IMG/VR virus record: IMGVR_UViG_3300028008_000005
Location: 50,690-114,689 of that record
Source: a virus
Length of the DNA: 64,000 bases
Reading direction: 5' to 3' (one strand)
Position numbers and translations under genes: made by a program. This document shows positions 29,798 to 49,801 of the stretch, in pieces; the first letter of the stretch is position 1, and the number at the start of each line of letters is the position of its first letter. The notes beneath the pieces were generated by a model, which worked only from the letters and a program-made list of their open reading frames with translations, was not told the DNA's origin and did not search any database.

Positions 29798-32700
29798 ATG
29801 GCAATAAATCTAAACACTGATCCGTATTATGACGACTTTGATAATACCAAAGGGTTTCATCAAATACTCTTTAAGCCAGGTGTTGCTGTACAAGCGAGAG
29901 AATTAACCCAGATTCAATCTATTCTTCAGAATCAGATTAAATCTTTTGGTGATAACATCTTCAAAGAAGGTGCTCTTATTCAAGGTGGTCATCAATCTCT
30001 AGATACCCAGTATCACTCAGTTAAGCTAACTGCCGCTGCGGATTCAATTGTATTGTCATTAATTGATCAAGAGGTATATGGACTAAAATCCGGTATTAAA
30101 GCTAAGGTTGTTAATGCTACCCAAGCGACCGCGGCAGGCGATCCGCCAACTATCTTTATTAAATATCTAAACTCAGGTAAAAGTAAAGAAAAATCCGGAT
30201 TTGCTCAGTCTGAGATAATATGGAACGAGGCTAAAACTGTCTCCGTTACTACTGCGGCTACTTCTGTAAATTCAGTTGGAACAGCTTATACCATGACAAA
30301 CGGTATCGTATATGCTGGAGGATTCTTTGTATACTTTGCTGATCAGACAGCTATCCTAAACAAATATGGTCCAATCACCAACATTATTGTTGGATTCGAT
30401 GTTAAGCAAACGATTAAAGATTTTACAGACGACTCTAGCCTAAATGATCCAGCTAACGGATCATTTAACTATGCTGCTCCTGGTGCTGATCGTCTTCAAG
30501 TAGCTCTTACACTTACAAATAGACCTTGGCAAGCTGATAATGTAGTTGATCCCGATTTTATAGAAATCGCTAGAATACAAAATAAAAAAGTTATATCTGC
30601 TGTAACAAGCACTGCATATAATATTCTAGGTGATACCCTTGCTCGTCGCACATATGACGAGTCAGGCGATTATGTAGTTCGTCCATATGATCTTTCAATG
30701 GTAGAGCATAAAAGGACATCGCTATCTGTAAACGATGGATACTACACTGCTGCCGAAGGTGGTGATGCTAATAAGTTTATTAATAAGATCTCCCCTGGTA
30801 AAGCTTACGTTAAAGGGTATGAGATTGATAACGTTAAAAGCGCAGCTATAGCTGGAGACAAGGCAAGAGATACAGCATTAGTAGAATCAGGATCGGTGTA
30901 CACCCCATTTGGTAACTATGTTCGTGTTACCAATATTAATGGTGTATCAGAAGAAATAGACAATCTTCCTGAAGTACAGATATACAGCCAATTTACTTCT
31001 ACCCCGGGTGTACCAGAAGGAATAGCAATCGGTACTGCTCGTATTCGTCATACAGAATTCTTTTCTGGTACACCAGGAACAACTACTGCCCAGTATAACG
31101 TTTACCTCTTTGATATTAAGATGAGGACTGGATTTTCGTTTACAAACGATGCCAAGCAAATAGTCTATATTAATTCAGTATATTCTTCTGACTTTACTGC
31201 TGATGTTGTTGAAGAACTATCTAACCTAACAGGTACTATATCAACCGTTGGAGCTTCCCAAACAATACAAGGTATTGGTACACGATTCCTTACAGAATTG
31301 AGTATAGGCAACTATATCAATATAGATGGGGATACACATCGTGTTACTACAATAATTGATGATACAGGAATTGAAGTATCACCAACGCCCACCCAGAGTC
31401 GGTCAGGCTATGTATTCTCATCTGTAAAGTCTAAACTATGGAATACCGATAGGAATTCATACATATTCCCCTTACCAGTTAATATTGTTAAGTCAATTGA
31501 TCCAAGTGGAGTAGATACGGTATACGAGACTCGAAGAATATTTGAAAGAACTTTAACAGCAGGTGTAGTTCAAGTAGATGCAGGCGTTAACGAAAGCTTC
31601 TCATCCGAATCACTTGATAATATGCAGCTATATGTTTCTAATGGAGATGTTGTAGATATAACTGGCGACGTAACAATATCTGGTGCAGCAAATACAGTAC
31701 TCACAATAGACATATCAGGTCAAGGATATACAACAGAAACAGTTATGCTAATTGCTACTGTTTCAAAAAATGGTTCGGCTGCTGACAAAAAGACTAAGTC
31801 TCTGCAAGCGAATCAACAGCTTGACATCCTAACAGAGGCAACATCGACTGCTCAAAGCATCTCTTTAGGTAAGGCAGATATTTATAGATTAGTCTCTGTT
31901 AAGATGACAACAACCGGTGTATTCGGTGATGCATCGTATAACAGTACAACAGAAGTTGATATTACTAATCGTTATACCCTTGACAACGGTCAAAAGGCAA
32001 CATACTACGGATTAGGTTCTCTTCGACTAAAAAGTGGATCAAATGCACCTACAGGGCCAATCCGTATTACCTTTGACTACTTTACACATGGAACAGGCGA
32101 CTACTTCTCTGTTGATTCATATACTATTGACTATAAGGATATTCCAACTCTTATTCTAGGTGGTAACGAGTACGTACTTCGAGACTGCTTAGATTTCAGA
32201 CCTAAGATTAACGATGCTGGTACCGGCTTCTCTGGTGCTGGATCAAGCGTTGGTGAATTCCCAGACTTTGAAAACGATATTACTACATCATACGAGTATT
32301 ACTTACCACGAACAGATAAGATTGTTATCAATCGCGATGGTCGTATTAAGGTAATTAAGGGTGAAAGCGGATTCGAGGCAAAAGAGCCTACCACACCTGA
32401 AGACTCAATGGCTTTGTATATCCTTAAACAAAAGCCATATGTCTTTAATATATCTACAGATATTGATATTGTTAAAATTGACAACCGACGCTTTACTATG
32501 CGTCAAATTGGCAAGTTAGAAAATAGAATTAAAAATATCGAATACTATACTTCTCTTAACCAGCTTGAGGTTGATACCCAGAACTATCAGATTAAGGATA
32601 TTAATGGATTTGATAAGTTTAAGAATGGCTTTGTTGTAGATTCATTCCAAGGTCACGGGATAGGAGACGTATATAACCCCGACTATGGTGTTGCAATCGA

Positions 32701-35038
32701 TTATGATAAGAGAGAACTTAGACCTCTATGTAAGACTGAGGCATTTACCCTAAAAGAAGTTGCAACCACAGACGCTGAAAGAGCTGCAGCTGGATATGCT
32801 AAGACTGGGGATTTGTACACTCTTCCATATACAGAAGAGAGACTAATCTCAAATAATAGATCTTCTAAAGTAGAGAATCTAAACCCATATGACGTGGTAT
32901 CTTTCCGGGGTAAGATGAAAGGTAAGCAATCCGACATATGGATTGATACGATTCGTCTTCCGGATCTTCCAGTATCTGTTGACAACTATTCTTCTCTTAC
33001 TGCTGATGCAAAGGCAAAGGGAACATATGGCACAGTTTGGGGAGCATGGGAAACAGTCCATTTTGGTACATATCAAGGAACACAAGAAATTGGAACCCGA
33101 GTAGGTACTGAAACAACCTACACTGAAGAGATTACAACAGAAACAAAACATGATATAGTAAGATCTTCTTCTGTTATAGCTAAAATGAGAGATGTTTCTA
33201 TTAACTTTGAGGCAGAGGGCTTAATGCCTGACACCAGAATGTACATCTTTATGAATAATCAAGATGTTACTGCAGATTGTAAATCTACTTTGTTATACGA
33301 TCATGATCTTGTAGCTGGTGATTCTAATACAACTATTAATGCTTTTGGGCAGCAAGGGAAAATGCTTGCTACAGATGATAACGGAAAGCTAAAAGGTACA
33401 TTCCATTATTCTGCAGAAAAGTATAATTGGAACACCGGATCATATATTATTCGAATGACCGATGATTTTGAAAATAATCCAACATATGAGTTTACTGCTG
33501 CAGAAATGACGTTTACCTCTTCGGGAGAACTTCATAATATACAAAATGAAATCGTATCAACACGAAATGCTATTGTTACTTCTAAGCCTGTTATTGAAAA
33601 GTCATCAAGAACAGACTATTTTGAAAGCGGTAAGCTTAAGAGCAAGTCTTGTAAAGGATTTGATCTATATGAAGAAAAATACGACGGGTCTGGCGGTACA
33701 TACGAAGTCCTTATAGATGCAAAGAATATTGGTGTATGTGGATATGTTAAGCCTATTATAACCCCTACCCCAATCGAGCCAGATAACCCTGTAGTTGTAC
33801 AGACATGTCCGGCCGGTGGAACAATACTTGATACCTATTGTGATGCTGTTACCTTTAATCTTATGGCAACAGTAGCTGCAGGACCTGATGGTAATGGGAA
33901 TTGCACAACAACAACAGTTATTACCGAAACTGGTTCTACCCAATGTACACCAGTTAGCCCGTGCGATGTTGCTGGAACCCTAGCTCAGACGTTCTGTAAG
34001 AATCAAACAGATCTATGGGGTCAATACTTTGACGGTACATACAACTACGTTACTGGGGATTGCAACACTTACCAATCCTTAATAGAAGCGAATAATGTTG
34101 AAGACTGTAAATATATACTTCATACTGCTTATGGTGTACCTACTGGTAACACTGAATGCTACCAGCCTGGATTTATTAAGTATGTAGAATATCACGATGG
34201 ACTTGGTGGAACATATAAGAACATTGAAGAATACGGTTCAGTAGAATGTGGATATGTAACTCCGGCAGTAATCGCAGCAGCTGAAGCTGAGGGCGAAGTT
34301 GTTACACAGGAAGAAAAAGATCTTGCTGAAACATATGATCCTGCTGATCCTATTGCAGCTGGTACACATAATCGTTATGAGTGTCGCGGCGTTGATTACT
34401 ATGAAATGATAGCTGATGGAAACTGGGGAGAAACTGCAGTTCTAATTGAAGCTAACTCTGAGTTCTACTGTAACTATACAGTTCCTAAAGATACAATCTT
34501 TATTGAAACCTTTGTCGATCTAGATCCAGACGACGATGATGACGGCGACTTAGATCCTCCACGAGCTCAAGTTGTAGATACCGTTGGATTTATAGGTGGT
34601 GTATTTAACTATGCATTTGGTAGAAACCTTACAGAAGCAGAAAGAGGAGAAGCTCAGGCTTATTTCGATGCTAACGGTATTACAGCAGACACCCTAGCAA
34701 ATGCAACAACGTCTGGCTCTAACATTACTAATGGATATATTGATGCTGACGTTGTCCCTGATGCTTATAATGCAGACGCAGAAAAAGTAGCACTTGCAGT
34801 AAAAACCATGATTGAGGTTGGTGTAGCTAGGGGATATGGAAGTGATTCAGATGCATCTGTAACCAATTATCTAAATACTGTTGAAGGTGCAAATGTAGAA
34901 ACTCTTTCAAACCAAATTGCTATTCAAGCAATTACAGCTGCTACACACATAGATAACCCTGCGATAGACGAAAGCTGGGCAAAAGAGGCTGTTAGGCTTC
35001 TTATAAATAATACTGAAACTGGCGGAAGCCTGGTATAA
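29798..35038 (+). CDS. Large virion structural protein, VrlC/DUF4815-like, N-terminal part
   Basis: N..PYYDDF, QARELTQ.Q.ILQNQ, APGADR, LARRTYDESGDY, FKNGF.VD.F. Confidence 0.85.
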   Translation: MAINLNTDPYYDDFDNTKGFHQILFKPGVAVQARELTQIQSILQNQIKSFGDNIFKEGALIQGGHQSLDTQYHSVKLTAAADSIVLSLIDQEVYGLKSGIKAKVVNATQATAAGDPPTIFIKYLNSGKSKEKSGFAQSEIIWNEAKTVSVTTAATSVNSVGTAYTMTNGIVYAGGFFVYFADQTAILNKYGPITNIIVGFDVKQTIKDFTDDSSLNDPANGSFNYAAPGADRLQVALTLTNRPWQADNVVDPDFIEIARIQNKKVISAVTSTAYNILGDTLARRTYDESGDYVVRPYDLSMVEHKRTSLSVNDGYYTAAEGGDANKFINKISPGKAYVKGYEIDNVKSAAIAGDKARDTALVESGSVYTPFGNYVRVTNINGVSEEIDNLPEVQIYSQFTSTPGVPEGIAIGTARIRHTEFFSGTPGTTTAQYNVYLFDIKMRTGFSFTNDAKQIVYINSVYSSDFTADVVEELSNLTGTISTVGASQTIQGIGTRFLTELSIGNYINIDGDTHRVTTIIDDTGIEVSPTPTQSRSGYVFSSVKSKLWNTDRNSYIFPLPVNIVKSIDPSGVDTVYETRRIFERTLTAGVVQVDAGVNESFSSESLDNMQLYVSNGDVVDITGDVTISGAANTVLTIDISGQGYTTETVMLIATVSKNGSAADKKTKSLQANQQLDILTEATSTAQSISLGKADIYRLVSVKMTTTGVFGDASYNSTTEVDITNRYTLDNGQKATYYGLGSLRLKSGSNAPTGPIRITFDYFTHGTGDYFSVDSYTIDYKDIPTLILGGNEYVLRDCLDFRPKINDAGTGFSGAGSSVGEFPDFENDITTSYEYYLPRTDKIVINRDGRIKVIKGESGFEAKEPTTPEDSMALYILKQKPYVFNISTDIDIVKIDNRRFTMRQIGKLENRIKNIEYYTSLNQLEVDTQNYQIKDINGFDKFKNGFVVDSFQGHGIGDVYNPDYGVAIDYDKRELRPLCKTEAFTLKEVATTDAERAAAGYAKTGDLYTLPYTEERLISNNRSSKVENLNPYDVVSFRGKMKGKQSDIWIDTIRLPDLPVSVDNYSSLTADAKAKGTYGTVWGAWETVHFGTYQGTQEIGTRVGTETTYTEEITTETKHDIVRSSSVIAKMRDVSINFEAEGLMPDTRMYIFMNNQDVTADCKSTLLYDHDLVAGDSNTTINAFGQQGKMLATDDNGKLKGTFHYSAEKYNWNTGSYIIRMTDDFENNPTYEFTAAEMTFTSSGELHNIQNEIVSTRNAIVTSKPVIEKSSRTDYFESGKLKSKSCKGFDLYEEKYDGSGGTYEVLIDAKNIGVCGYVKPIITPTPIEPDNPVVVQTCPAGGTILDTYCDAVTFNLMATVAAGPDGNGNCTTTTVITETGSTQCTPVSPCDVAGTLAQTFCKNQTDLWGQYFDGTYNYVTGDCNTYQSLIEANNVEDCKYILHTAYGVPTGNTECYQPGFIKYVEYHDGLGGTYKNIEEYGSVECGYVTPAVIAAAEAEGEVVTQEEKDLAETYDPADPIAAGTHNRYECRGVDYYEMIADGNWGETAVLIEANSEFYCNYTVPKDTIFIETFVDLDPDDDDDGDLDPPRAQVVDTVGFIGGVFNYAFGRNLTEAERGEAQAYFDANGITADTLANATTSGSNITNGYIDADVVPDAYNADAEKVALAVKTMIEVGVARGYGSDSDASVTNYLNTVEGANVETLSNQIAIQAITAATHIDNPAIDESWAKEAVRLLINNTETGGSLV

Positions 35039-35059: not shown

Positions 35060-36859
35060 ATGTCATATAATGTCGTAGATCCTTTAGCTCAATCTTTTCT
35101 TGTTGAGGATACCTGTGTAGTTACTAAGGTAGAATTATTCTTTAAGAATATAGACAGAAAGACCCCTATGAGGATTCAGTTAAGGGATATGAAAGACGGA
35201 TTCCCCGGAGATTATATTATTCCTCTTTCAGACAAGTTTGTATATCCTAAAAATATATCTACCTCAGCTGACGGGTCCAAGGGTACTATAGTAAGATTTG
35301 ATAGCCCTGTGTTTTTAAAGAAAGGCGAATATGCTCTTTGTCTCGGTTCTGATTCAAAGAAATATACCGTGTTTATATCTGAGCTAGACACTACAGATCT
35401 GATTACTGGTAAAAGAATTATTAAGCAGCCTTATCTAGGATCCCTGTTCAAGTCCCAAAATACCTCAACTTGGACACCCGAGCAAATGCAGGATCTTAAG
35501 TTTAGTATTTTTAAAGCTAAATTTGATACAACTGCAGCTGGTAGTATTGATTTCAATGTTAACAATTCCCTTATGGAAACACAAGTCCTAGAAGAAGATC
35601 CTTGTCAGACCTTCTCAGGGTCTACCACAATGAGGGTAAACCATTTTAATCATGGTATGACTGATGGATCCTATGTTAAGTTATCTGGTATTGCAGAAGT
35701 AGATAAGGTATTCGGAACAACTGGAACTATACATGGTGTAGACTTTACAAATGTATTGAATACAGCTCTAGTAATAGCAAACGCTAGTCTTAACGGATAT
35801 ACTGTTACACTCCCTACTGCAGCAAATGCTGATGCTAGATTTGGAGGAACTCGAGTAACCGCTACGGAAAACATTGTAGTAAATGCTCTATACCCTATTA
35901 CATCTAAGATTGAAGAAACAACTACACAGGTCCAGCATTTATTTAAAGGGACTTACTCTGATTACTCTCAGGATCTAGCCTACACTGTTCTTGAACCTGG
36001 CACAACTGAATTATCTAAGTCTAGAATTATTACTAACTCGACTACTAAAGCAGAAAACCTATCAGGAGCAGATTCGTTTAGTTATAGAATTGGTTTAAGC
36101 TCTCAGAATACTAGACTATCTCCCGTAATCGATCAGCAGCAGCTTGGGGTATTAACAGCACAAAATTTAATAAACAACCCAGACGAATCAACTGAAAATC
36201 CATTAACAGAAGACCTTATAAACTTTATGACTTCTGTGGCTTCTGTAACATTTACAGCTGTTACAACAACTTCCGGAATACTTACGGTACCCCTGGCACA
36301 ACAAGATGCTGCACTTAAATTGATACCAGGAACAACAGCATATATTACTGATTCTAATACTACCAATACTGGGACTTATCGTATATCAAATATCGCATCT
36401 AATGGTGATGAGATATTATTTACTAAGATTTCAGGTACATGTGCTACTAATACTGGAACATATACAATTTCAATTGGTAGAAACTTTGTTGCTGAAGAAG
36501 CTCCTTCTGGCGGTTCAGTATACTCTAAGTATATTACTCGTAAAATTGACTTTGCTAATCCGTCTACGTCGATTAACCTTAGATTAGATGTTAATCGGCC
36601 GGCGGGATCAAACATTAAAGTATTCTATAAGTCAAGCCTAGTTGGTGAATCTGATGATATTGCAGAGAACGAATTCAAACACATTGATGCCTTAATACCT
36701 ATTCTGCCGGTATCTCTAGACAAGAAATTCCAAGAAGTAGAGGTAGAGCTACTTGATCTTCCTCCTTTTGAAAGCATCGTATTTAAGATTGCATTTACAT
36801 CAACAGATTCTGCTAGTGTACCTAAGTGTAAGAATCTAAGGATCATAGCGTTAGCATAA
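35060..36859 (+). CDS. Virion structural protein, VrlC-like C-terminal part
   Basis: DPLAQSF, F.SPVFL, QPYLGSLFKSQN.STW...Q..DLKF, KYITRK, P....LR.IAL. Confidence 0.8.
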   Translation: MSYNVVDPLAQSFLVEDTCVVTKVELFFKNIDRKTPMRIQLRDMKDGFPGDYIIPLSDKFVYPKNISTSADGSKGTIVRFDSPVFLKKGEYALCLGSDSKKYTVFISELDTTDLITGKRIIKQPYLGSLFKSQNTSTWTPEQMQDLKFSIFKAKFDTTAAGSIDFNVNNSLMETQVLEEDPCQTFSGSTTMRVNHFNHGMTDGSYVKLSGIAEVDKVFGTTGTIHGVDFTNVLNTALVIANASLNGYTVTLPTAANADARFGGTRVTATENIVVNALYPITSKIEETTTQVQHLFKGTYSDYSQDLAYTVLEPGTTELSKSRIITNSTTKAENLSGADSFSYRIGLSSQNTRLSPVIDQQQLGVLTAQNLINNPDESTENPLTEDLINFMTSVASVTFTAVTTTSGILTVPLAQQDAALKLIPGTTAYITDSNTTNTGTYRISNIASNGDEILFTKISGTCATNTGTYTISIGRNFVAEEAPSGGSVYSKYITRKIDFANPSTSINLRLDVNRPAGSNIKVFYKSSLVGESDDIAENEFKHIDALIPILPVSLDKKFQEVEVELLDLPPFESIVFKIAFTSTDSASVPKCKNLRIIALA

Positions 36860-37110
36860 TGTCATTAGTTAAAGTAAAACCATTTGACGGTTATGAACAT
36901 CTTCTAAAGGATACTCGGAATAAAGCTGTGATTAACCAAGACGATAAGGCTTTTTCTGATTATGTTTCAAAAAGAAATAAAATCAGAGAAGAGGAAGCTT
37001 TTAAATATAATATGGAAACCCAGATGCAAGATGTTGAATCGGATATAAATAATATTAAGTCCGATTTATCTGATATTAAGAATCTGCTTACTGCATTAGT
37101 AAATAAATAA
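36859..37110 (+). CDS. Small coiled-coil protein that typically follows VrlC-like genes
   Basis: L.KD....AVIN.D followed by C-terminal heptads. Confidence 0.7.
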   Translation: MSLVKVKPFDGYEHLLKDTRNKAVINQDDKAFSDYVSKRNKIREEEAFKYNMETQMQDVESDINNIKSDLSDIKNLLTALVNK

Positions 37111-37121
37111 TAGGAATCACA

Positions 37122-38078
37122 ATGTCTGTAGCACTCACACTTCGTAGTGTAAAAGGTACCCGACTAACTAATACAGAAGTCGATACTAACTTTAGTAATA
37201 TTAGCACAGAACTTGATCTTAAAGCACCTATTAATAATCCGGTCTTTACTGGATCAGGTCAATTTACTGGTGCTTTAACTGTAGACGGCGATCTAGAAGT
37301 ATCAGGTACAACCACCTTTGTTAACGTACAGAATCTTGGTGTTGCTGATACCATGATCTATGTTAACCAACGAACAGAGGGAACACTAACTGCTGCTTCT
37401 GGTGATGGAACCAATGTAACATATACAGTTGATAATAACTATGTTGTAGGGGACTTCCTCGTTGTACAGGGTGTTACCCCAGCGTCTTTTAATGTTAACG
37501 GAGCATTGATTACCGCAACTACAGAGACATCAGTTACAATTGCTTCAACAAATACAGATACATATGTGTCTGGTGGTTCTACCTATGCTAAGACCTATGT
37601 TAATCTAGATCTTGGTTTAGCAGGGGGATATAATTCAGACGGTACAGCAGGCGGGTATGCACACACTGGCGTATTTAGAGATGCTACTGACGGCGGAACT
37701 TGGAAGTTCTATCAGGGATATACCCCAGAGCCTTCAGCTGGTGTTGACATTAATACGAGTCACGCTAGCTTTGCTCTTGCGCCAATCGCTGGATCAACAA
37801 TATCAGCAACAGACTTTAATTCAACGTCTGATATTAGTTTAAAGAAAAACGTGAGAGTTATAGAAAATGCTTTAGATCTGGTAAACAGACTAGAAGGCGT
37901 AAACTTTGAATGGAAAGATTCCTCCAAAGCTGCTATAGGTGTAATTGCTCAGCAGGTAGAAGAGGTAGTTCCAACTATTGTTAATACAGGTTCAGATGGA
38001 ATTAAGAGAGTATCATATGACTCGCTTATTCCTATACTCATCGAGGCAATTAAAGAGTTATCAGCTAAAGTCAAATAA
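37122..38078 (+). CDS. Fibre protein with a C-terminal intramolecular chaperone (peptidase S74-like)
   Basis: N-terminal LR..KG..LT..EVD.NF; C-terminal SD..LKKN...I.NAL...GVIAQ.VE..VP..V...LIEAIKEL. TATAAATA at 37044. Confidence 0.85.
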   Translation: MSVALTLRSVKGTRLTNTEVDTNFSNISTELDLKAPINNPVFTGSGQFTGALTVDGDLEVSGTTTFVNVQNLGVADTMIYVNQRTEGTLTAASGDGTNVTYTVDNNYVVGDFLVVQGVTPASFNVNGALITATTETSVTIASTNTDTYVSGGSTYAKTYVNLDLGLAGGYNSDGTAGGYAHTGVFRDATDGGTWKFYQGYTPEPSAGVDINTSHASFALAPIAGSTISATDFNSTSDISLKKNVRVIENALDLVNRLEGVNFEWKDSSKAAIGVIAQQVEEVVPTIVNTGSDGIKRVSYDSLIPILIEAIKELSAKVK

Positions 38079-38112
38079 GACCTTCAGCCGAGTTTCTCTA
38101 GGAGATACGAAG

Positions 38113-38493
38113 ATGGCAATAAAGGTATCAGGCACTACGATTATTGATGATAATCGTAATCTTGTCGACGCCAATGTCAGGGGTAAAAAACAGGATCTAG
38201 GTAGCATCTCTGGTGTAATATCACTAGATATGAATGATGGCGAAACTGTTACAGCAACCATTACTGGCAATACTACATTCACTGCTACAAATATTGTTAG
38301 CGGTTCTGTAAACACTATTTTCTTTTATCTAACTAATCCTGGGACAGGAACAATTACCTGGCCACCAACTACTACTTGGGACAAAGGAAATTATCCAGTA
38401 CTTAATTCCTCCGGTAAGACTCTGATTATTCTAGAATCATACGATAACGGATCAAATTGGTTAGGTGTTCAGGCTTGGCGTCAAAACGCATAA
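38113..38493 (+). CDS. Small fibre-associated structural protein (start re-called at MAIKVSG)
   Basis: AGGAG RBS; MAIK..GT.IIDD.RN and ITWP....W..G..P motifs. Confidence 0.7.
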   Translation: MAIKVSGTTIIDDNRNLVDANVRGKKQDLGSISGVISLDMNDGETVTATITGNTTFTATNIVSGSVNTIFFYLTNPGTGTITWPPTTTWDKGNYPVLNSSGKTLIILESYDNGSNWLGVQAWRQNA

Positions 38494-38502
38494 GGAAATA
38501 TA

Positions 38503-40467
38503 ATGTCACGTAGATTCTGGTTAGGTACTCCAAAAGGGCAGTACACGTCAGCTGTTACTAGCTTTCTTACATCTAGACTGACTAATACAACTTTTAATAC
38601 TTCAGCTCCTACGCTAACTCCTACTACTTTTATAACACAGTGGTATACACCTACACCTACGTCAAATTTAACGACTACAACCTATAACACCTTATTTACT
38701 GATCCTGGTATTGATACTGAATACTCAAGCTCTTTTATAACAAATTATATTACTAACTTTGCGAATGTTGTACCAACTGCGTTTGCTGAAACCACAATAT
38801 ATTCCCCGACTAGTAATCAAACGTTTAAGGGTAATTATAACACAGATATTTCTACAACTATAAGTCCTGGCACAACACAATATACTGTGCCTACTACATC
38901 TACTAGTTTTACATCTGGCACAACACAATATACTGTGCCTACTACATCTACTAGTTTTACACCTGGTACAACACAATATACTGTGCCTACTACATCTACT
39001 AGTTTTACACCAACGGCAACTGTGTACACTAGTTATACGCCAACGGCAACTGTGTACACTAGTTATACCCCAACTCCAACTAATTATACTTATTTTTATA
39101 CCTATCCCACTCAATATTTACAACCAACTAGTCATCCTACAATTAGCACTACTTACGTTACTCAGGATATTTATCAGCCCACAGAATATTCACAAAATAC
39201 GACTGTTGCTGGATATTTCTATACTACATTTACAACGACAACAACATCATATACATATCCCGATTCTGCATCCGGATGCTACCTATATAATGTAGACGGA
39301 TCGCCGGCCGGTACATCAGGAGACACGGTACCAAGTAACTGCTCTATTGTATCTTGTACTCCGGCCCCCAACGGCGATACATATTCTACTGGAAATGTAT
39401 TTACTGATTATCCTTATTCTCAAGCAACCTTTTATGTGTCAACATATATTTCTACACAAACAACATATACCACAACATCTTCAAACACTTACGTGGGAAA
39501 CGGCCTAGGTGCTCCCCCGTTTGGGGGTTGTTATCCAGAAATAGATGCAGCCGAATATTGCGCAAGTCCTGAGTCTAACTGTTATCCTTGTGCGATCTAT
39601 GAGGTTACTTCCACAATCGCCACGTCATATGCTAATTACCCTGTTAGTGTTACAGTATATTATAATTCAGGTTATACCCTTCCTCAGTATACACAAGTTA
39701 CTTATTTATCAGCATCTTGTCTAGATTGTAGTTTAACGTGTAATACCACTGAGGAGATTATCGCTGCTAATCCAACTGGAGGATACGTAGCACCTAGCTC
39801 TAGAAATACATCTTATAATGTAAATACAGTTATCGGTAACACAATTAATACTAATTTAACGCCCACTGAAACATACTATGATTCCGGTTATTATGTTAAT
39901 ACCCAGGGTGAGGGATATAATGTTACTTCAACGCAGTATACCAGCTTTACCCCAGGTACAACGCAGTATACTAACCTTACACCAGGTTCAACGCAGTATA
40001 CTAACCTTACACCAGTTCAAGAAACAAGGTTTGATCCAACAACATATACTAGTTTTACAACAGTTCAAGAAACAAGGTTTGATCCAACGACATATACTAA
40101 CCTTACACCAGTTCAAGAAACAAGGTTTGATCCAACGACATATACCAGTTTTTCTACTACTGTTAGCTCCTTATTGGAAACTACTACATATCAAACTGAA
40201 ACAGGTATAACAACGTCGTTTAGAGATACTGATTATCCTACTAGTAATCCTACTTCAAAAACGACTACAACTACTTTCTTACAGAATACAGGTGCTACTT
40301 CATATGAGGTTCCAACGTCGAATCAGACTACAACTACATATGATACCGATACTTTAACCCAGCAAGAAACATCAAGAGATACCGAGGTTATTACAACTTG
40401 GTTAACAGATGATGACATAACAACATCATTTACGACTTCTAGGTCTACGACCTGGTTCACGCAATAA
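38503..40467 (+). CDS. Thr/Tyr-rich fibre-like protein with mirrored repeat arrays and a central Cys-rich domain
   Basis: 654 aa; repeats detailed in the findings; lies in the fibre cluster; AAGGA RBS. Confidence 0.75.
   Translation: MSRRFWLGTPKGQYTSAVTSFLTSRLTNTTFNTSAPTLTPTTFITQWYTPTPTSNLTTTTYNTLFTDPGIDTEYSSSFITNYITNFANVVPTAFAETTIYSPTSNQTFKGNYNTDISTTISPGTTQYTVPTTSTSFTSGTTQYTVPTTSTSFTPGTTQYTVPTTSTSFTPTATVYTSYTPTATVYTSYTPTPTNYTYFYTYPTQYLQPTSHPTISTTYVTQDIYQPTEYSQNTTVAGYFYTTFTTTTTSYTYPDSASGCYLYNVDGSPAGTSGDTVPSNCSIVSCTPAPNGDTYSTGNVFTDYPYSQATFYVSTYISTQTTYTTTSSNTYVGNGLGAPPFGGCYPEIDAAEYCASPESNCYPCAIYEVTSTIATSYANYPVSVTVYYNSGYTLPQYTQVTYLSASCLDCSLTCNTTEEIIAANPTGGYVAPSSRNTSYNVNTVIGNTINTNLTPTETYYDSGYYVNTQGEGYNVTSTQYTSFTPGTTQYTNLTPGSTQYTNLTPVQETRFDPTTYTSFTTVQETRFDPTTYTNLTPVQETRFDPTTYTSFSTTVSSLLETTTYQTETGITTSFRDTDYPTSNPTSKTTTTTFLQNTGATSYEVPTSNQTTTTYDTDTLTQQETSRDTEVITTWLTDDDITTSFTTSRSTTWFTQ
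38866..39099 (+). repeat. Coding tandem repeats: 3 x 48 bp, then 3 x 30 bp (third copy degenerate)
   Basis: PGTTQYTVPTTSTSFT x3; PTATVYTSYT x2 plus PTPTNYTYFY. Confidence 0.9.
39922..40155 (+). repeat. Coding tandem repeats: 3 x 30 bp, then 3 x 48 bp
   Basis: VTSTQYTSFT, PGTTQYTNLT, PGSTQYTNLT; then (P/T)VQETRFDPTTYT(SF/NL)(T/S) x3. Confidence 0.9.
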
Positions 40468-40477
40468 GGAGCATTAA

Positions 40478-40987
40478 ATGTTATATGCAAGAATAAACAA
40501 AGAAACTGACGAGGTCTTAGAGTTTCCCATAACAGAAAAAGAGCTTCGCAATGCTCTTTTAAACACCTCTCTGCCATCTAAAATTACCTCAATGACCCTA
40601 GCTGGTACTGCTTATGTATTGGTTCCCCCGATTCATCCAGATCAGCTTACTGTTCAGGCAACTGCTGAAATGGCTATTGAGCCTGTTGGTTGTTCAAAAG
40701 ATCCTGAAACAAAAGTCTGGATAAGAGAATATGGATTGGTAGAAGTACCTGAAGGTGGTCGTTTACAAAGGCTTGCCGGCCGATGGAATTATATACGAAC
40801 AAGAAGGGATAGAGTTCTTAGGGCTATCGATTGGAGAGTAATAAGAAACCAAAGAGAGATTGCTTTAGGCCTTACTCCTACAGACGATATAGATACTCTA
40901 TATGCTAAGGCACAAGAGATGGCTGATATTACAGATTCACATGAAGATCCGTTCTTAATTGATGCTAGTACTATAACTATAGAATAA
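40478..40987 (+). CDS. Tail fibre assembly chaperone-like protein
   Basis: W..IR..RD..L...DW...Q..ADIT C-terminal motif; directly follows the fibre gene. Confidence 0.65.
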   Translation: MLYARINKETDEVLEFPITEKELRNALLNTSLPSKITSMTLAGTAYVLVPPIHPDQLTVQATAEMAIEPVGCSKDPETKVWIREYGLVEVPEGGRLQRLAGRWNYIRTRRDRVLRAIDWRVIRNQREIALGLTPTDDIDTLYAKAQEMADITDSHEDPFLIDASTITIE

Positions 40988-41021
40988 AAATACTTTTTGT
41001 TATTTTTGATAAGGTAATACT

Positions 41022-42065
41022 ATGGAAGTAAAAACAAATATGGACCCGTATGCGGCTTATTCTCCTGCAAAGGAAGAAAAAAAGCCTAAGATTGAACCTA
41101 AAATTGCCCCTCGATTATCTGATCAGCTTATGTCTGACGAAAAGACGTTCGGTTCTGGTAAGATAGGTCCATATATCTCAAGATCTAAAAGAAACAATTG
41201 GGCTACTGATCAAGAAGCTACTCTTCGCGAAAAGTGCCCAGATTTCTATTATATCTCCTATGATGTTTCAGCAAATCAACCTAACAACTTCTCAGAATAT
41301 TGCTACACTGAATTCCCAGCTGGTGGACTTTATAGTTCCACACAATCACGCGAGATTAATTGCAGATTAATTGATTTTGCATCTAAGGAAGAATCAGGTT
41401 TAAAAGGAGAAGAAGCCCTTACTCATTTTATTGATTCCCTGTCTGATAAATACGATCTTCTTGATATAGAAGAAAAATATCAAGGTATAAATCATGTTGT
41501 CTTTATGCCAGGTCATAATCTTTTAGACTTAGCTGATGTTGACTATGTCCTAAGACTTATAAATGAAACCGATGATGTATATCTTAAGCCACACCCTCTA
41601 ACTGTAGGTGATGCAGTTCACGGTTTAGCCGGTAGAGTTGGATGGAATAAAATCTTGCCAAAGGATGCTTCTGGTGTAAAGTTACTTCAAAACTGTACCC
41701 ATGTTTATACAACAACTGCATCTGAATTCTCTATTACTGGAGCTGCTCTTGGTAAGGCTGTTATTAATATCTCTAAATATCAATCAGAGGGAGCTGGAGT
41801 ATATCAACCATTCTCGAGAGTATTAACGATTGCCCAAAGACGTCATGGCACTGAAGAAGCAAAAAGGTTACTAGGTAATATACTGGCATGTAAGTGGTCT
41901 GGCCTCTATTTTGAGTGGCAGGATGATGTCGAGGAAAGAATGGATGCTTACTTTACTAAAACCCAAGAGCTTCGCGAGCTGTACCGCCCATTAGCACAGG
42001 GTCGTGGCGATATTGATAAAGGTGCTAAAAAAGTCCCAGTTAAGGCTGTAGCTGGAAAGAAATAA
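41022..42065 (+). CDS. Hypothetical protein, possibly a GT-B glycosyltransferase (KpsC/KpsS-like C-terminal half)
   Basis: YLKPHP motif followed by LL..C..VYT..SE....A.LGK.V. Confidence 0.45.
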   Translation: MEVKTNMDPYAAYSPAKEEKKPKIEPKIAPRLSDQLMSDEKTFGSGKIGPYISRSKRNNWATDQEATLREKCPDFYYISYDVSANQPNNFSEYCYTEFPAGGLYSSTQSREINCRLIDFASKEESGLKGEEALTHFIDSLSDKYDLLDIEEKYQGINHVVFMPGHNLLDLADVDYVLRLINETDDVYLKPHPLTVGDAVHGLAGRVGWNKILPKDASGVKLLQNCTHVYTTTASEFSITGAALGKAVINISKYQSEGAGVYQPFSRVLTIAQRRHGTEEAKRLLGNILACKWSGLYFEWQDDVEERMDAYFTKTQELRELYRPLAQGRGDIDKGAKKVPVKAVAGKK

Positions 42066-42094
42066 ATCATAAATACATGTAAGGAGTCTCCTCC

Positions 42095-42295
42095 ATGTCA
42101 ATAGTGGAAGGTAAAGGACACCCAGAAGTAGCAAGACGAATTGCTCTTTGCGGAAGATGTGTTCATCTTATACCTCATATGAACGTATGTAAAAAGTGCG
42201 GATGCTTTATGCCCGCCAAGACAAGATTATCCGGAGCTCGATGCCCAATAGGTAAATGGGAAAAAATCGAGATAAAAGATATAACAGAAGAATAG
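42095..42295 (+). CDS. Small Cys-rich protein (DUF6171-like)
   Basis: R...C..C......C..CGCFM..K......CP..KW; CATAAATA at 42068. Confidence 0.7.
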   Translation: MSIVEGKGHPEVARRIALCGRCVHLIPHMNVCKKCGCFMPAKTRLSGARCPIGKWEKIEIKDITEE

Positions 42296-42304
42296 GTAAT
42301 AGCA

Positions 42305-42841
42305 ATGGCAGCAAAGATTATACTTAAGAAATCTAATACGCCTACTAGTCAACCAGGTGTATCAGATCTTGAATATGGTGAGCTTGCTATTAACTATGAC
42401 GATGGCATACTGTATTATAAAAATAATGCAGGTGCAGTTGATATTATTGCACGTAAAGCCATTGGTGGTGCATCTGGTATATCAATCACTAGGATATCTA
42501 CTAGCTATACTGCAAGTGGCGGTGATTTCCTCCTTGCCGATACTTCTCTCGGTTCATTTACTCTAACCCTACCATCCGCTCCTACAACAGGATCTTTTGT
42601 TACTATATTTGACGGTGGGTCTTGGACATCTGATCCTCTTATTATAGATCCAGGCCTTCTTAGTATAGATGGTGGTGCAGGCGGAAGTACCATTAATCTA
42701 GAGGTAGGCAACGTAAGGGTAGACTTAGTTTATAATGGGACAACCTGGAAAACCCACATACCAGTTGATCGCCAGTGGGTAGAAAATAGATTAACAGCAT
42801 TTGAGGATGATGTTATAACTTATGCTATAGCTTTAGGTTAG
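42305..42841 (+). CDS. Virion protein with an Mtd_N-like N-terminus
   Basis: I.LK.S......P....L..GELAINY.DG.LYYK; DTS.G.FT.TLP..P..G; C-terminal YAIALG. Confidence 0.7.
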   Translation: MAAKIILKKSNTPTSQPGVSDLEYGELAINYDDGILYYKNNAGAVDIIARKAIGGASGISITRISTSYTASGGDFLLADTSLGSFTLTLPSAPTTGSFVTIFDGGSWTSDPLIIDPGLLSIDGGAGGSTINLEVGNVRVDLVYNGTTWKTHIPVDRQWVENRLTAFEDDVITYAIALG

Positions 42842-42847
42842 AATACG

Positions 42848-42855
42848 TATAAATA
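42848..42855 (+). promoter_or_regulatory. Late promoter TATAAATA
   Basis: Exact consensus, intergenic. Confidence 0.75.
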
Positions 42856-42888
42856 GTAACTATATACTAAGAATCTTAAGTAGAATTT

Positions 42889-43206
42889 ATGTCATCATTC
42901 TCTAACATTTCATCATCAGGAATTGGCACTACGCCAACGACCCTATTTACAGCTACAGAAAAAACTGTAGTGATTGGCTGTAATATGTCAAATGTTATTA
43001 ATCAGATCGTTCCAGTTAGCGTTATATTAAATGATGGTAGTAACGACGTATACATCAAGAAAAACTTTAGAATAGAAAATGGTTTTAATGATGAAATTAT
43101 GAAGGGCAACAAAATAGTATTAGAGATAGGCGATTCAATTAAAGCTTCAGCTGCTGTTGATTCGTCTGTTGATGTAGTTCTATCCCTATTAACAGGAGTT
43201 AATTAA
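42889..43206 (+). CDS. Small virion structural protein
   Basis: VIG...SN ... GNKIVLE.GD.I.....S.D...S motif; follows the late promoter. Confidence 0.7.
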   Translation: MSSFSNISSSGIGTTPTTLFTATEKTVVIGCNMSNVINQIVPVSVILNDGSNDVYIKKNFRIENGFNDEIMKGNKIVLEIGDSIKASAAVDSSVDVVLSLLTGVN

Positions 43207-43463
43207 TGGCTGGAATCGAAGGCGCAGATGACTATCCCGAAGGGTTAGATCTTGCTAATAAAACCTTTTATGGATTTAAACTAAATCCTGACAATGGCGG
43301 ACTAGATGTTCAGCTTATAGACGATGATACCATGGCGGTTTCACTTCCTAACCTACAGGATAAAATCATCGATAAATACGCATATAAACATTGGGTTTGG
43401 TCACAAAATTCCCTTCAGTTCCAGTGGAGCGATAACGGACATTTACAGGTTAAAATAGTATGA
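43206..43463 (+). CDS. Hypothetical protein, 85 aa
   Basis: Translationally coupled on both sides. Confidence 0.7.
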   Translation: MAGIEGADDYPEGLDLANKTFYGFKLNPDNGGLDVQLIDDDTMAVSLPNLQDKIIDKYAYKHWVWSQNSLQFQWSDNGHLQVKIV

Positions 43464-46400
43464 CACAGTTAATAGATTTAGGTAAATTAAGATTTCACTT
43501 TGCGGGTGACTGGGCTTCTGGTACTACCTACGAATCCAATGACATTGTAAAATACGGTGGTAATGTATATGTTTATACGTATGCATTAAAATCTGCTGGT
43601 GTTTTACCTACAGATGACACTCGCTGGGCCTTAATGGTTGAAGGCTTTAGATTCCAGGGTGAATTTGATGTTACTGTTGACTATAAAGTCGGCGATACAG
43701 TAGCACATGGTGGTGTTGTTTATGTTGCTATTGCTGATTCTGTAAACACTACACCACCCAATGCTACATACTGGAGCAAATTCCTTGATGGTATTCAATA
43801 TGAGGGAATTTATGATCCGGTAGGTGTATACCAAAAGAGCGACGTAGTTAACTACGGTGGTTCAATATACATTGCTACACAAGATACATCTGGTAATTTA
43901 CCAACAGATGCTACTTTCTGGAATAAGTTCGTAGAAGGTGTAAGCCCACAAGGCGTATATAACGACGCTACAGCATATGTACCAAACGACTTGGTAGCAT
44001 ACGGCGCTAACATCTACCGAAATAAAATCGAAAGTACTGGCAACGTTCCTTCTAATGTAACATATTGGGAACTTTACATTGGTGGTATTATCTTTACGGG
44101 TACATTTAATCCCGTTACAGAGTACTTTGTAAATGACTTGGTTATTTACGGTAACACAATTTATCGATCACGCCAAACTCAATCTGCTGTACTTCCTACT
44201 GTTACAGCTAACTGGGAATTGCTAACTGGCGGTGTTAACTACTCCGGTAACTGGGACGTTGCTACACAGTATTACATCGGTGATATTGTTGTATATGGTA
44301 ATAACTCTTACCGTGCTACCGTAACTACACTTGGTGCTAATCCAACTGATCTGGTTGATTGGGTATTACAAGCTGGTGCAACATCATATCAAGGCGTATA
44401 TTCTAACGCGACTACTTACTATATTGGCGACTTAGTTAACTATGGTGGTAACGTATATCTTAACATAGCAGAATCAGTTGGCGATGTACCGACAGATACA
44501 AGTCATTGGTCATCATATTCTGCTGGATTCTCCTATCAAGGAGTGTGGTCAAGCGCTACTCAGTATTACATTGCTCAAGTGGTTAACTACGGTGGATCGC
44601 TATACCAAGCTGATGTTGATAATAGCAATACTAATCCTACAGACACAGCGTCATGGAGTAAGATCGTACCAGGCATTAAATCGCTAGGTCCATGGGCAAC
44701 GCTAACAGAATATGCTACAGACGAAGTGGTTACATATGGCGGTAACACGTTTATCGTTCTATTACCACACGCTGCTGGTTCAGACTTTAATGTTGATCTC
44801 GCTGCTGGTAAATGGCAAAAATTTAACTCTGGCATTCGTTGGAGAGGCATTTGGTCATCAGCTACACAATATCTAAAAGATGATGTAGTAAAGGCTGGTT
44901 CATCCTCCTTTATTGCAGGCGAAGATGTAATCGGCGGTAATTCCCCAGCAAGTGATCCTGTTCCACCAGAATGGCTTGGCTTTGCAACAGGTGCTGAAGG
45001 ATTCCTATCAAAAGATGGCGATACAATGTTGGGTTTCCTTACATTGGATGCAGATCCTACTGACGCTTTACATGCGGCAACTAAAGCATATGTAGATCGC
45101 TTTGTTAATGCTACAGATGGTGGTACAGTTGAAGGCCCATTAATATTCGACAACACTTCCTCGGGTGGTGCTGGACTTACCCTGCAGAATGGTGCTGATC
45201 TTACTGTTGATGGTGGTACTGTTACACTTGAAAACGGTGCTACACTTTCAATTGACTCAGCATCAACCCTTGCAGAAGTTACTGTAGACGGTGATATTAA
45301 TCTAAATGGCGGTAACCTAGACACTACGCAGACCTCTATTAATATAGTTAATGCCAACGCTACAACAGTTAATTTTGCAGGTGCGGGTACAGCAGTGAGT
45401 ATTGGTGCTGCTACTGGTACTACAACGATTAATAATAACCTTGTCGTTACAGGTACAACAGCATTTAACGGTGGTACAATTGAGCTTGGCGATGGTGATG
45501 CAGATAACGTTGTGTTTGGTGCTGATGTTAACTCGGCAATTATTCCAAATATTGATGATACCTACGACTTAGGTACTGCTACTAAAGAATGGAAAGATTT
45601 ATTCCTCGACGGTACTGCAAAGATTGATACAGTCGTCGTTGATGAAACTCTAAGTGTTACTGGTAATACCTATCTTACAGGCGAGCTAGATACTGGAATT
45701 GGCGGTACTACATACACTAATACTTCTCTTGATCCAACAGGCTTTGACAACAGCCACGCAACAACACGTGGTGTTATTGAATTCTCTGATAATGGTACAA
45801 GAGTATATTCAATTGGTACCGACGGCGTAGTAACAGAGCGTGAAGATTCTACCTTTGCAACAGGTACTGCTTACTCAACTGCTGCTACTGCAAATACTTT
45901 GGTTATGTATCCAGCAGCTGGTCAGGCTAACTTTACCTACTACGTTAACGGAGTACGCTACGAAAAGACTGCATTAGAGTCAGTTACATTAGCTGGTACA
46001 CCTACACTATATCATTACTTCCACTTTGCTGATGGCGTATTAAGTTCTTCTACTACACGAGACGACGCATCATTAATTAGTAATGCTCAAGTTGCTTCAA
46101 TCTACATTAGTCCATCTAATAATCGTATTACCTATCTTTCAGACGAAAGACATGGTATATCAATTGATGGTGATAGCTTAGTCTATGCTAATAAAGATGG
46201 CCTTGAGGTAATTAGCGGATTTGGTCTAACAGGAACTGCTGGATCAGAGAATTATGTATCTACTTCTGCAGGTGTACTTAGAAATGCAGATCTTAGAATC
46301 GATGCTCCGGTTAAAACAACAAATAAGTTTGCTTCTCGTCTTGCTACAGATTGGAAAATTTCAGACTTCGGCAACACATTAATATCCAACAAGCTAAGTA

Positions 46401-49400: not shown

Positions 49401-49801
49401 CAGCAACGCTAAATGCTAACGCCTTTAACCTAGCTGGTTTGACTAGCTTACGACTCGGTTCGATCGGTGCACAACTTGGTGAATCGATTAACGAATTCTC
49501 ATCTGATGGTACATTGGCTGGTAATTCAAATATTGCAGTACCAACAGAAGCAGCTGTTAAAACTTATGTAGATAATAAGAGTCTTAGCAGTACCTTTAGT
49601 AGTTTGAATTCTACATTTAATGCAGCTAATCAATTAACTGGAGCTATAAATCAGGGAATAACTTACTCAGAAATAGCTTATAATTCAGATGGATATATAT
49701 CATCATATAAAGAAACAGTTGACGGCCTAACTATAAAGCTTATAACTGTTACATATGACTCTGATAATCTAATTACTGCAGTAACAACAGCAGTCGTATA
49801 A
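43460..49801 (+). CDS. Giant multi-domain tail fibre / adhesin (2113 aa)
   Basis: IDLGKLRF start; about 9 W...T.Y...D.V.YGG..Y repeats; DP....HAATK.YVD; GSGYT.A...ITGDG.GA repeats; PFASIKYA..beta-helix-like domain; AVPTE.AVK.YVD. Confidence 0.8.
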   Translation: MTQLIDLGKLRFHFAGDWASGTTYESNDIVKYGGNVYVYTYALKSAGVLPTDDTRWALMVEGFRFQGEFDVTVDYKVGDTVAHGGVVYVAIADSVNTTPPNATYWSKFLDGIQYEGIYDPVGVYQKSDVVNYGGSIYIATQDTSGNLPTDATFWNKFVEGVSPQGVYNDATAYVPNDLVAYGANIYRNKIESTGNVPSNVTYWELYIGGIIFTGTFNPVTEYFVNDLVIYGNTIYRSRQTQSAVLPTVTANWELLTGGVNYSGNWDVATQYYIGDIVVYGNNSYRATVTTLGANPTDLVDWVLQAGATSYQGVYSNATTYYIGDLVNYGGNVYLNIAESVGDVPTDTSHWSSYSAGFSYQGVWSSATQYYIAQVVNYGGSLYQADVDNSNTNPTDTASWSKIVPGIKSLGPWATLTEYATDEVVTYGGNTFIVLLPHAAGSDFNVDLAAGKWQKFNSGIRWRGIWSSATQYLKDDVVKAGSSSFIAGEDVIGGNSPASDPVPPEWLGFATGAEGFLSKDGDTMLGFLTLDADPTDALHAATKAYVDRFVNATDGGTVEGPLIFDNTSSGGAGLTLQNGADLTVDGGTVTLENGATLSIDSASTLAEVTVDGDINLNGGNLDTTQTSINIVNANATTVNFAGAGTAVSIGAATGTTTINNNLVVTGTTAFNGGTIELGDGDADNVVFGADVNSAIIPNIDDTYDLGTATKEWKDLFLDGTAKIDTVVVDETLSVTGNTYLTGELDTGIGGTTYTNTSLDPTGFDNSHATTRGVIEFSDNGTRVYSIGTDGVVTEREDSTFATGTAYSTAATANTLVMYPAAGQANFTYYVNGVRYEKTALESVTLAGTPTLYHYFHFADGVLSSSTTRDDASLISNAQVASIYISPSNNRITYLSDERHGISIDGDSLVYANKDGLEVISGFGLTGTAGSENYVSTSAGVLRNADLRIDAPVKTTNKFASRLATDWKISDFGNTLISNKLSILGSVTVDNGGSGYRGATTSAVVQGDGSLATVELGFSAAPIASVTLTDGGYDYAPGTTAAITGDGTGALVSVTIPLGFNLATQASGGLNLPTSGSGYTNPLITVVNDPSDTTGTGAVISHTLDYGTPIADIHMDALGSGYTTATATITGDGAGATATVTITAGAVSDINITDPGSGYTTATVDITGDGTGASATVYTLKNEIVDYLITAVGSGYTTASVTINGDGHGATATATITAGGVADIVITAGGHSYTYATMTITGDGTGATAEPRLSGYPIASISFADDDARGKNYTAIPDVTILEDGFGIVKDGGSPNSPNAPTPADITTALSTGNTIEALTLDSAGTGYTTAVLGLSNIGDGNGASFDSSTEPSSILSVTVTNGGKQYTYADIIITSPTGSGATFTSNLTPVPQFNEKTAGQYDFANIPADKFTTTYFVAINGVDNVIKIPSEYIFDSIVEAYMKATPEIEELKTYGLPFEKYEFIGFSILNHLGEIQTMSDTNQGDVVYYDLTARIATDLVEDQVGDVGVAGRSLTVTNSGTSAQFIGATESDKVYYVAPHGVDALHSGRNQSTPFASIKYACEQAGDNATIFVKTGSYTEELPIVVGSNTAVVGDNQRTVLVHAASGFETGTMWKLSNGAILNKMTFKGMTGWVAGSTPDDITTSTPAGIAVAFNELSPISTKSPYVLECSFIGSGGIGAYVDGTLHGSGNKSMIFHGYTIISDNGVGYWVDNGGLAELVSNFTYFCYFGYTCTNGSEIRSLNGNCSYGTYGASSSGFDAAEVPLTGTLVGQELNAVYISGTVNVGDTITEDITGATATVLNVQYSADKVYVENVSGTFTPGNNCTTSSGAVFTVDLGGAQDVRGFILIVTGLAAEPKPGGSISLTDDSISYVIQSVSGTYVDNTSNMIVVLSQEKPTGSAEGVATTVRYNYSQVRLTGHDFLQIGTGGTVTTNHPNEPTQPPAQGNEIQETFPGRVYYVSTDQNGNFRVGEFFKIDQATGTATLNANAFNLAGLTSLRLGSIGAQLGESINEFSSDGTLAGNSNIAVPTEAAVKTYVDNKSLSSTFSSLNSTFNAANQLTGAINQGITYSEIAYNSDGYISSYKETVDGLTIKLITVTYDSDNLITAVTTAVV

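Follow-up and report, generated by a model that had tools for sequence, protein, structure and literature searches.

The fibre gene and its repeat layout

The stretch of DNA analysed here (the window; 64,000 nucleotides, positions 50,690 to 114,689 of the IMG/VR virus record IMGVR_UViG_3300028008_000005) stems from an uncultured marine T4-like myophage; the source record comprises 114,689 bases and is estimated to be 64% complete. It carries a tail-fibre module in which lies, as a single copy, the gene that is the subject of this report, an uninterrupted open reading frame at 38503-40467 on the + strand whose 654-amino-acid (aa) product is of the tail-fibre type and a putative receptor-binding protein. 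The two halves of this protein harbour tandem repeats in mirror order, and their lengths vary together among homologues, a pattern that points to a polypeptide chain running out and back along itself.

Thr (28%), Ser (10.5%), Tyr (9.6%) and Pro (7%) together make up 55% of the residues; Pro recurs about every 10 residues within the repeats, and there is a single His. An earlier note, made by reading the letters of this stretch, had described three 16-residue followed by three 10-residue units in the N-half and three 10-residue followed by three 16-residue units in the C-half, and this layout is borne out by Tandem Repeats Finder (TRF) and by the starts of the units in the protein. On the N side, TRF reports a period of 48 nucleotides with 3.0 copies (38866-39011, 96% matches) and then a period of 30 with 2.8 copies (38998-39081); on the C side, it reports a period of 30 with 2.9 copies (39929-40015) and then a period of 48 with 3.0 copies (40007-40152). 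The 16-residue units begin at aa 123, 139 and 155 and at aa 505, 521 and 537, and the 10-residue units at aa 171, 181 and 191 (the third of these is degenerate) and at aa 475, 485 and 495. The same note was also correct in stating that the two kinds of 16-residue unit are unlike in sequence (they share a '..TSFT' tail), that every Cys is central (all ten lie between aa 259 and 413), and that the flanks outside the repeats are alike in length (about 122 aa on the N side and about 102 aa on the C side). The gene can be divided as follows.

38503-40467 (+): whole gene, a 654-aa Thr/Ser/Tyr-rich fibre protein, hypervariable member of the tail-fibre module (open reading frame, composition, identity across loci)
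38503-38553 (+): N-terminal 17 residues (MSRRFWLGTPKGQ...), the most conserved segment, possibly an unpaired overhang or docking end (mean identity 96% in the close clade of homologues and 77% against distant members; many invariant columns)
38554-38865 (+): N flank, aa 18-121, free of repeats; its echo motifs lie at aa 19-27 and 52-63 (identity profile, motif positions)
38866-39012 (+): N-arm array of three 16-residue units, 48-nucleotide DNA period (TRF, protein pattern)
39013-39102 (+): N-arm array of three 10-residue units, 30-nucleotide period, third unit degenerate (TRF, protein pattern)
39103-39276 (+): N link, aa 201-258, from the repeats to the Cys core, variable (57% mean identity, close clade)
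39277-39741 (+): Cys core, aa 259-413, with 10 conserved Cys, putative distal tip at the turn (Cys positions, invariant Cys columns, family-wide length of 150-163 aa)
39742-39924 (+): C link, aa 414-474, variable (61% mean identity, close clade)
39925-40014 (+): C-arm array of three 10-residue units (TRF, protein pattern)
40015-40158 (+): C-arm array of three 16-residue units, sequence unlike the N-arm 16-residue units (TRF, protein pattern, exact DNA repeats)
40159-40464 (+): C flank, aa 553-654, which closes with the invariant ...TSRSTTWFTQ; its echo motifs lie at aa 604-615 and 641-649 (close-clade mean identity 86%, invariant columns)

The flanks were further said to echo each other. Motif pairs are indeed found at aa 19-27 and 641-649 and at aa 52-63 and 604-615, but the similarity of the flanks as such is marginal when taken alone, with a local score of 81 against 63.8 +/- 8.5 in composition-matched shuffles, 40 of 1000 of which reach 81. 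It is the homologues, and not this single sequence, that establish the mirror layout as something other than chance. At the DNA level, the longest exact repeats measure 47, 44 and 42 nucleotides in the N-arm 16-residue array and 44, 37 and 28 nucleotides in its C-arm counterpart; an inverted DNA repeat was sought within the fibre gene, and none was found.

Matched variation of the two arms among homologues

The fibre protein has no match in Pfam (E up to 10) or in PHROGs, a profile built from 15 homologues matches none of the PDB chain sequences at E <= 1, and neither tblastn with the protein nor blastn with positions 36000-43000 yields a match in a phage collection, from which records close to the window may have been excluded. 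A profile search of 1.84 billion cluster representatives (at 50% identity) returned only seven proteins. Through word-indexed searches and scans of contigs, a set of 32 distinct full-length members was assembled; these are 407-654 aa long and 30-98% identical to the window protein. They constitute a new and very small family of phage fibre proteins in which the coupled evolution of the arms has left a clean signature.

In every member, the N part was measured as the residues before the first conserved Cys and the C part as the residues after the last conserved Cys. Across the 32 sequences the N part ranges from 135 to 258 residues and the C part from 117 to 241, while the Cys core stays steady at 150-163 residues. 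The two parts are correlated with r=0.992 over 19 length classes, and the N part exceeds the C part by 15-18 residues in 29 of the 32. This relationship was even tighter in the first 22 sequences (15 length classes), where the difference is always 15-18 (r=0.9997, slope 0.99) and where none of 200,000 permutations was as tight. Ten new sequences, found by a search that started from distant members, provided an out-of-sample test; seven of these obey the same rule, including one new length class (229/214). To control for shared ancestry, pairs of sequences were chosen whose connecting tree paths share no branch. The nine independent pairs available differ in their N and C parts by (10,10), (-49,-49), (16,16), (-27,-14), (42,42), (32,32), (33,34), (-14,-13) and (5,3) residues, so that all nine agree in the direction of change and eight show changes that match to within 2 aa.

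The arms match in position as well as in size. Insertion sites can be located only for inserts other than tandem copies, and in the four cases of this kind the distances from the Cys core are these.

P0068: N arm, 130-133 residues from the core; C arm, 128
P0014: N arm, 100 residues from the core; C arm, 97
P0069: N arm, 137 residues from the core; C arm, 132
P0002: N arm, 90 residues from the core; C arm, 85

Hence, the insertions on the two arms are equidistant from the core within 2-5 residues in four of four cases. The order of the units is mirrored too: the N arm of P0002 reads 16-10-16-10-10-10 and its C arm 10-10-10-16-10-16, which is an exact mirror. Neither duplication nor conversion of DNA can yield a mirror order of units that point in the same direction; separate events must therefore have occurred on each arm, and these were retained together. 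Nor does the matching depend on one kind of repeat, for P0004 arrives at 71/70 residues between fixed anchors by means of 20-aa repeats that occur on both arms and are unrelated to those of the window protein, and the arms of both P0004 and P0068 are matched by unrelated, partly non-repetitive inserts. The remaining length classes of the close clade, measured between the same anchors, are 36/35, 46/45, 52/51, 78/77 and 84/83.

If each residue i of the N arm is set against a residue j of the C arm (window protein numbering), the insertion sites place the symmetry point at i + j = 667-669 and the echo motifs place it at 667-668. Corrected mutual information between columns of the N part and the C part, averaged along anti-diagonals of an alignment of 21 sequences, peaks at 665-669, and this peak recurs in the close-only, distant-only, flank-only and link-only subsets (z values of 2-2.9). 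The three estimates are independent of each other, and they agree. Conservation is symmetric as well: the mean identity within the close clade amounts to 0.96 over the first 17 residues, 0.84 over the N flank and 0.86 over the C flank, and to 0.57-0.66 in the repeats, links and core. Such a gradient is what one would expect if both termini constituted a conserved attachment end and the middle of the chain lay distally.

The earlier note had predicted that the repeat content of the two arms covaries among homologues, and the correlation, the concordant direction of all independent pairs and the mirrored insertion sites show that it does; unequal arms, which would have spoken against the prediction had they been common, are not common among diverged lineages. 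Its further claim that the arms must match holds as a strong long-term tendency and not as an absolute rule, given rare variants within clusters of 90% identity and one clade whose arms are stably offset by about 13 aa (both considered below). Overall, the interpretation is supported.

A proposed out-and-back fold

We consider it reasonably likely that the N arm and the C arm physically pair in antiparallel fashion within one and the same chain, which would close in a distal tip; this reading is drawn from comparative sequence data. The chain would leave the virion-proximal end and run outward along the N arm (about aa 18-258), residues 259-413 would form a Cys-stabilised distal tip that is the putative receptor-binding site, and the C arm (aa 414-654) would return antiparallel against the N arm in an approximate register of i + j = 667-669. 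Because such a chain runs out along one arm and back along the other, both conserved termini would come to lie together at the attachment end. Each of the 10- and 16-residue Thr/Tyr modules of which the arms consist would face a module of equal length on the opposite arm. A PF16778-like chaperone encoded downstream probably assists folding, and the fibre may be a trimer, by analogy with other fibres.

Changes in the length of such a fibre would probably take a two-step course. In the first step, slippage in the near-identical 30- and 48-nucleotide DNA repeats, or some other insertion, would alter one arm and thus create a misfit; in the second, the unbalanced form would either be lost or be compensated through a change of the same size at the mirrored place in the opposite arm. 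Paired steps of this kind would tune the length of the fibre and leave the termini and the tip in place.

The whole polypeptide would then be a single out-and-back rod, assembled from paired Thr/Tyr modules 10 or 16 residues long and capped by a tip with 10 Cys, and its length would evolve through slippage and through compensatory, mirror-placed insertions. Whether this full combination amounts to an undescribed architecture is, in our judgement, evenly balanced.

Points against the pairing, and alternative explanations

Several observations weigh against this fold, or at least against its strictest form. Unbalanced variants make up about 12%, 27% and 12% of the contigs in three clusters of 90% identity, and it is only inside such clusters that unequal arms are found, apart from the clade with the 13-aa offset. 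For example, the majority form 84/83 is accompanied by 84/67, 68/83 and 52/83, the form 46/45 by 36/45, 46/35 and 26/45, and the form 78/77 by 94/77. The unequal forms are present on 1-3 contigs each, compared with 37, 16 and 7 contigs for the balanced forms of the three clusters; nine of ten unequal forms are deletions of whole units, and they are confined to clusters with near-identical DNA units, a cluster without such units showing no length variants. The unbalanced locus L004 and the balanced locus L002 are 99.7-99.99% identical over 9 kb, and inside the gene only three substitutions and a 30-nucleotide deletion set them apart. The unbalanced variants are thus either assembly collapses or very young slippage alleles, and imbalance does not persist in diverged lineages, with the offset clade as the sole exception.

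This clade (P0069, P0070 and P0071; N and C parts of 206-208 and 178 residues) has an N part that exceeds the C part by 28-30 residues, and no other diverged lineage departs from the equal-arm rule. Since its members keep a stable offset of about 13 aa, exact equality of the arms is evidently not obligatory. Their inserts lie at mirror positions near the termini, are non-repetitive and of a different composition, and measure about 25-27 aa on the N arm and 13-19 aa on the C arm; they could form a small paired knob instead of an extended arm. In a quick tree, P0070 groups with P0068 and not with P0069 and P0071, a placement that hints at recombination.

Structure prediction likewise lends no help. 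The AlphaFold2 (AF2) monomer, computed from a 15-row alignment, has a mean predicted local distance difference test score (pLDDT) of 35.9 and a predicted template modelling score of 0.17; both of its arms are coil, no helix is assigned to them (at low confidence), and the model is unusable. The ESM Atlas model of the exact sequence reaches a pLDDT of 0.33, without feature matches and with structure rows that all have a template modelling (TM) score < 0.3. As no structure model is usable, the out-and-back fold is derived from the comparative data. Residue covariation, for its part, is weak and confounded by the symmetric gradient of conservation; in a new alignment of 31 sequences, the anti-diagonal that had been predicted attains z 1.8-2.6 and is not the global maximum, though it beats position-shuffled columns (0-3 of 300). 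For these two reasons we count covariation as suggestive only. The cross-correlation of hydrophobic patterns between the N arm and the reversed C arm gives no consistent register in distant members; a steady offset (+5) of the hydrophobic/aromatic pattern appears only inside the close clade, and since distant members give differing offsets, this measure was not used as evidence. Finally, a Pro at about every tenth residue makes one uninterrupted beta ribbon, which the earlier note had pictured, unlikely, and a chain of short paired modules is more plausible.

Pairing could also take place between chains, with the N arm of one subunit lying antiparallel to the C arm of another; this would produce a two-fold rod with the Cys domains in its middle and a pair of termini at each end. 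The matched sizes, the mirrored sites and the mirrored order of units fit such a rod just as well as they fit pairing within one chain. We hold it to be unlikely nonetheless, given that conservation falls from both ends of the chain to a variable middle, that phage fibres are usually conserved at the attachment end and variable distally, and that the precedent set by the T4 fibre protein gp37 is intrachain (PMC9603124).

It is rather improbable that the arms do not touch at all and act as spacers measured against a third component, or form an open arch rising from two anchors, with selection keeping the central domain centred. In its favour, no structure shows contact between the arms. The neighbouring structural genes (encoding proteins of 318, 126 and 169 aa) are constant in length and can be aligned over their full extent in every locus, whereas arm length differs by as much as 48 residues even inside the close clade; hence, the arms are not measured against an adjacent partner. 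Moreover, spacers or an arch would leave unexplained why changes are equal within 2 aa in eight of nine pairs, why insertion sites are mirrored to within 2-5 residues, and why the order of the 16- and 10-residue units is mirrored.

Very improbable, lastly, is the idea that the arms are mucin-like disordered, perhaps O-glycosylated linkers whose matched lengths are a by-product of slippage or conversion between similar repeats: the extreme composition (Thr, Ser and Pro amount to about 46%) and the low-confidence coil in which AF2 leaves the arms would suit it, but disordered linkers would not stay equal across 19 length classes, conversion copies units in the same order and not in mirror order, the N and C 16-residue units differ, and P0004 and P0068 achieve matching arms with inserts that are unrelated and in part non-repetitive. 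Glycosylation of a folded fibre is possible and would be compatible with antiparallel pairing within one chain, which we continue to favour.

The surrounding gene module

By matches to Pfam and PHROGs, the module contains upstream of the fibre gene a gp5-like hub/lysozyme, a gp6-like wedge subunit and more wedge proteins, and further fibre genes downstream. The gp6-like protein is about 38% identical to its best matches from cultured phages, namely the Methylophilales phage Melnitz and the Pelagibacter phages Mosig and HTVC008M. The related loci in which the module occurs (L001-L016) keep the same order of genes around the fibre gene. No gene of the module diverges more than the fibre gene: its identity is 55-65% between loci in which the neighbouring genes reach 88-95%, and 40% in distant loci, compared with 59-87% for the neighbours. 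The gene immediately downstream encodes the following protein.

40478-40987 (+): tail (fibre) assembly chaperone, 169 aa, downstream of the fibre (PHROG, PF16778, and AF2/BFVD matches)

The 169-aa protein matches PHROG families for tail fibre and tail fibre assembly (6e-5 and 7e-4, both weak), and PF16778 matches four of 16 homologues at E <= 0.01 (best 2.4e-5), with one homologue carrying a precomputed PF16778 match; the copy in the window scores 12.3 bits against PF16778, which is under the Pfam gathering threshold of 26.6. Its AF2 model has a pLDDT of 90.1, and the best BFVD matches of this model are annotated 'Phage tail assembly chaperone protein' (E 1.6e-7, TM 0.55). A Foldseek comparison of the model with the PDB gave nothing at E <= 0.001, and a wide VIA-align comparison with solved structures gave generic helical hairpins only (Z < 8). 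Going by the model and these matches, the 169-aa product is predicted to be a PF16778-like tail assembly chaperone. With 77-79% identity between loci, its gene is the second most divergent of the module, and receptor-binding fibres are usually encoded in this way, by a hypervariable fibre gene with a chaperone gene behind it that diverges in step. The location of the 654-aa protein in a fibre module, its divergence above that of the flanking structural genes and the chaperone gene directly downstream are all features of the tail-fibre class.

Directly upstream of the fibre gene lie two genes whose products are of constant length in all loci. One (37122-38078, +) encodes a fibre of 318 aa that carries a peptidase S74 intramolecular chaperone domain at its C-terminus, and the other (38113-38493, +) a 126-aa protein that matches the C-terminal parts of tail fibre PHROGs. 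Both proteins are candidate docking partners for the conserved termini of a hairpin fibre.

Other genes in the vicinity deserve brief mention. Two adjacent genes further upstream (29798-35038 and 35060-36859, both +), encoding 1746 and 599 aa, match successive parts of phrog_358 (positions 4-1241 and 1420-1603 of 2056) and seem to encode a single large virion protein between them; related loci show this split as well. Downstream of the chaperone gene, a 347-aa gene (41022-42065, +) that is about 90% conserved between loci matches phrog_26179 (unknown function, 3.4e-54), and its product has neither a Pfam match nor a meaningful sequence match in the PDB. It is followed by a gene (42095-42295, +) for a small Cys-rich protein (66 aa) that matches DUF6171 below the threshold (E 3.3e-4; 21.4 bits, cut-off 27) and is conserved at 92-95% in close loci and at about 72% in distant ones. 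The fibre protein encoded at 43460-49801 (+; 2113 aa; phrog_9851, 6.4e-225) contains internal wedge-like and virion-protein repeats, and its first 700-1000 residues are only 82-91% identical between close loci.

Comparison with known systems

The closest known system is the receptor-binding needle of the T4 long tail fibre protein gp37 (domains D10-D11, PDB 2XGF). In this needle, each chain of the trimer passes from a knob to the tip and back again; the stem segments 882-931 and 960-1009 are of equal length, and the tip (932-959) is inserted between them (PMC9603124, PMC6957217). The stem binds seven iron ions through His residues arranged in His-x-His motifs (PMC6957217). The window protein resembles gp37 in having a dedicated chaperone and in its place within a T4-like tail-fibre module, of which gp37 is the host-range determinant. 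It would also share the out-and-back course that brings the N and C termini together on equal stems, a course that the matched arm sizes, the mirrored insertion sites and the symmetric gradient of conservation would fit. The differences are substantial. No sequence relationship is detectable by Pfam, PHROG or a PDB profile, and the window protein, with one His in 654 residues, has no His-x-His iron sites. The fold-back of gp37 is a 128-residue insertion that ends a unidirectional fibre of 1026 aa, whereas that of the window protein would span the whole polypeptide, with a 10-Cys core of about 155 residues and with arms of about 120-240 residues that consist of modular tandem repeats, present in different numbers in different relatives. 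In addition, the predicted chaperone here is PF16778-like and not gp38 or gp57A. By analogy, the window protein would thus work like the gp37 design without being a member of the gp37 family.

An intrachain fold-back with matched arms is also found in a very different group of proteins. In SMC, Rad50 and MukB, one chain folds back so that its N and C arms pair antiparallel beneath a small apex domain, which in Rad50 is a Cys-containing zinc hook; the arm lengths of SMC and Rad50 must match, and they differ together between species. The same covariation across relatives is seen in the window family (r=0.992 in 32 sequences; all nine independent pairs changing in the same direction). There is no homology, and the arms of SMC and Rad50 are alpha-helical coiled coils of DNA-handling ATPases, whereas those of the window protein are rich in Thr, Tyr and Pro, with no helix predicted.

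The gene pair as such is reminiscent of fibre-chaperone pairs with PF16778 (Phage_tail_APC), in which a hypervariable fibre gene is followed by a small, co-diverging chaperone gene; it differs from these in that the chaperone of the window falls under the Pfam threshold and in that its fibre partner belongs to no described family. With regard to its mode of evolution, the fibre can be compared with the compensatory covariation of RNA stems, where distant segments of one polymer change together, pairing is kept, and one-sided intermediates are only rare, recent variants. The compensated unit here is, however, a peptide module of 10-49 residues, and there is no inverted repeat at the RNA level. 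The triple beta-spiral shafts of the adenovirus fibre and of reovirus sigma1 are unidirectional and built from repeats of about 15-16 residues with a Gly/Pro turn. The window protein likewise has 16-residue units with Pro and Gly, but these are mixed with 10-residue units and show no sequence match, and a unidirectional shaft would not need matched arms.

Implications for phage host recognition

Uncultured marine T4-like phages are an abundant group whose host-recognition proteins are, to our knowledge, almost unknown. If the arms of the fibre studied here pair, its family would show whole peptide modules of a fibrous protein evolving in a compensatory manner, a process that can be read from sequence without a structure, and the pairing makes a concrete prediction: a register near i + j = 668, termini that lie together, and a distal Cys core. 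The out-and-back principle, known from the short stem of T4 gp37 with its iron staples, would then apply to an entire protein of different chemistry. Such a fibre would be a protein counterpart of the covariation in RNA stems and a naturally length-programmable nanofibre. It would allow the phage to alter the reach of its fibre by about 10 or 16 residues per arm at a time, a step that would correspond to about 3-5 nm if the arms are extended (given the normal rise of an extended strand), with both the attachment end and the tip left undisturbed.

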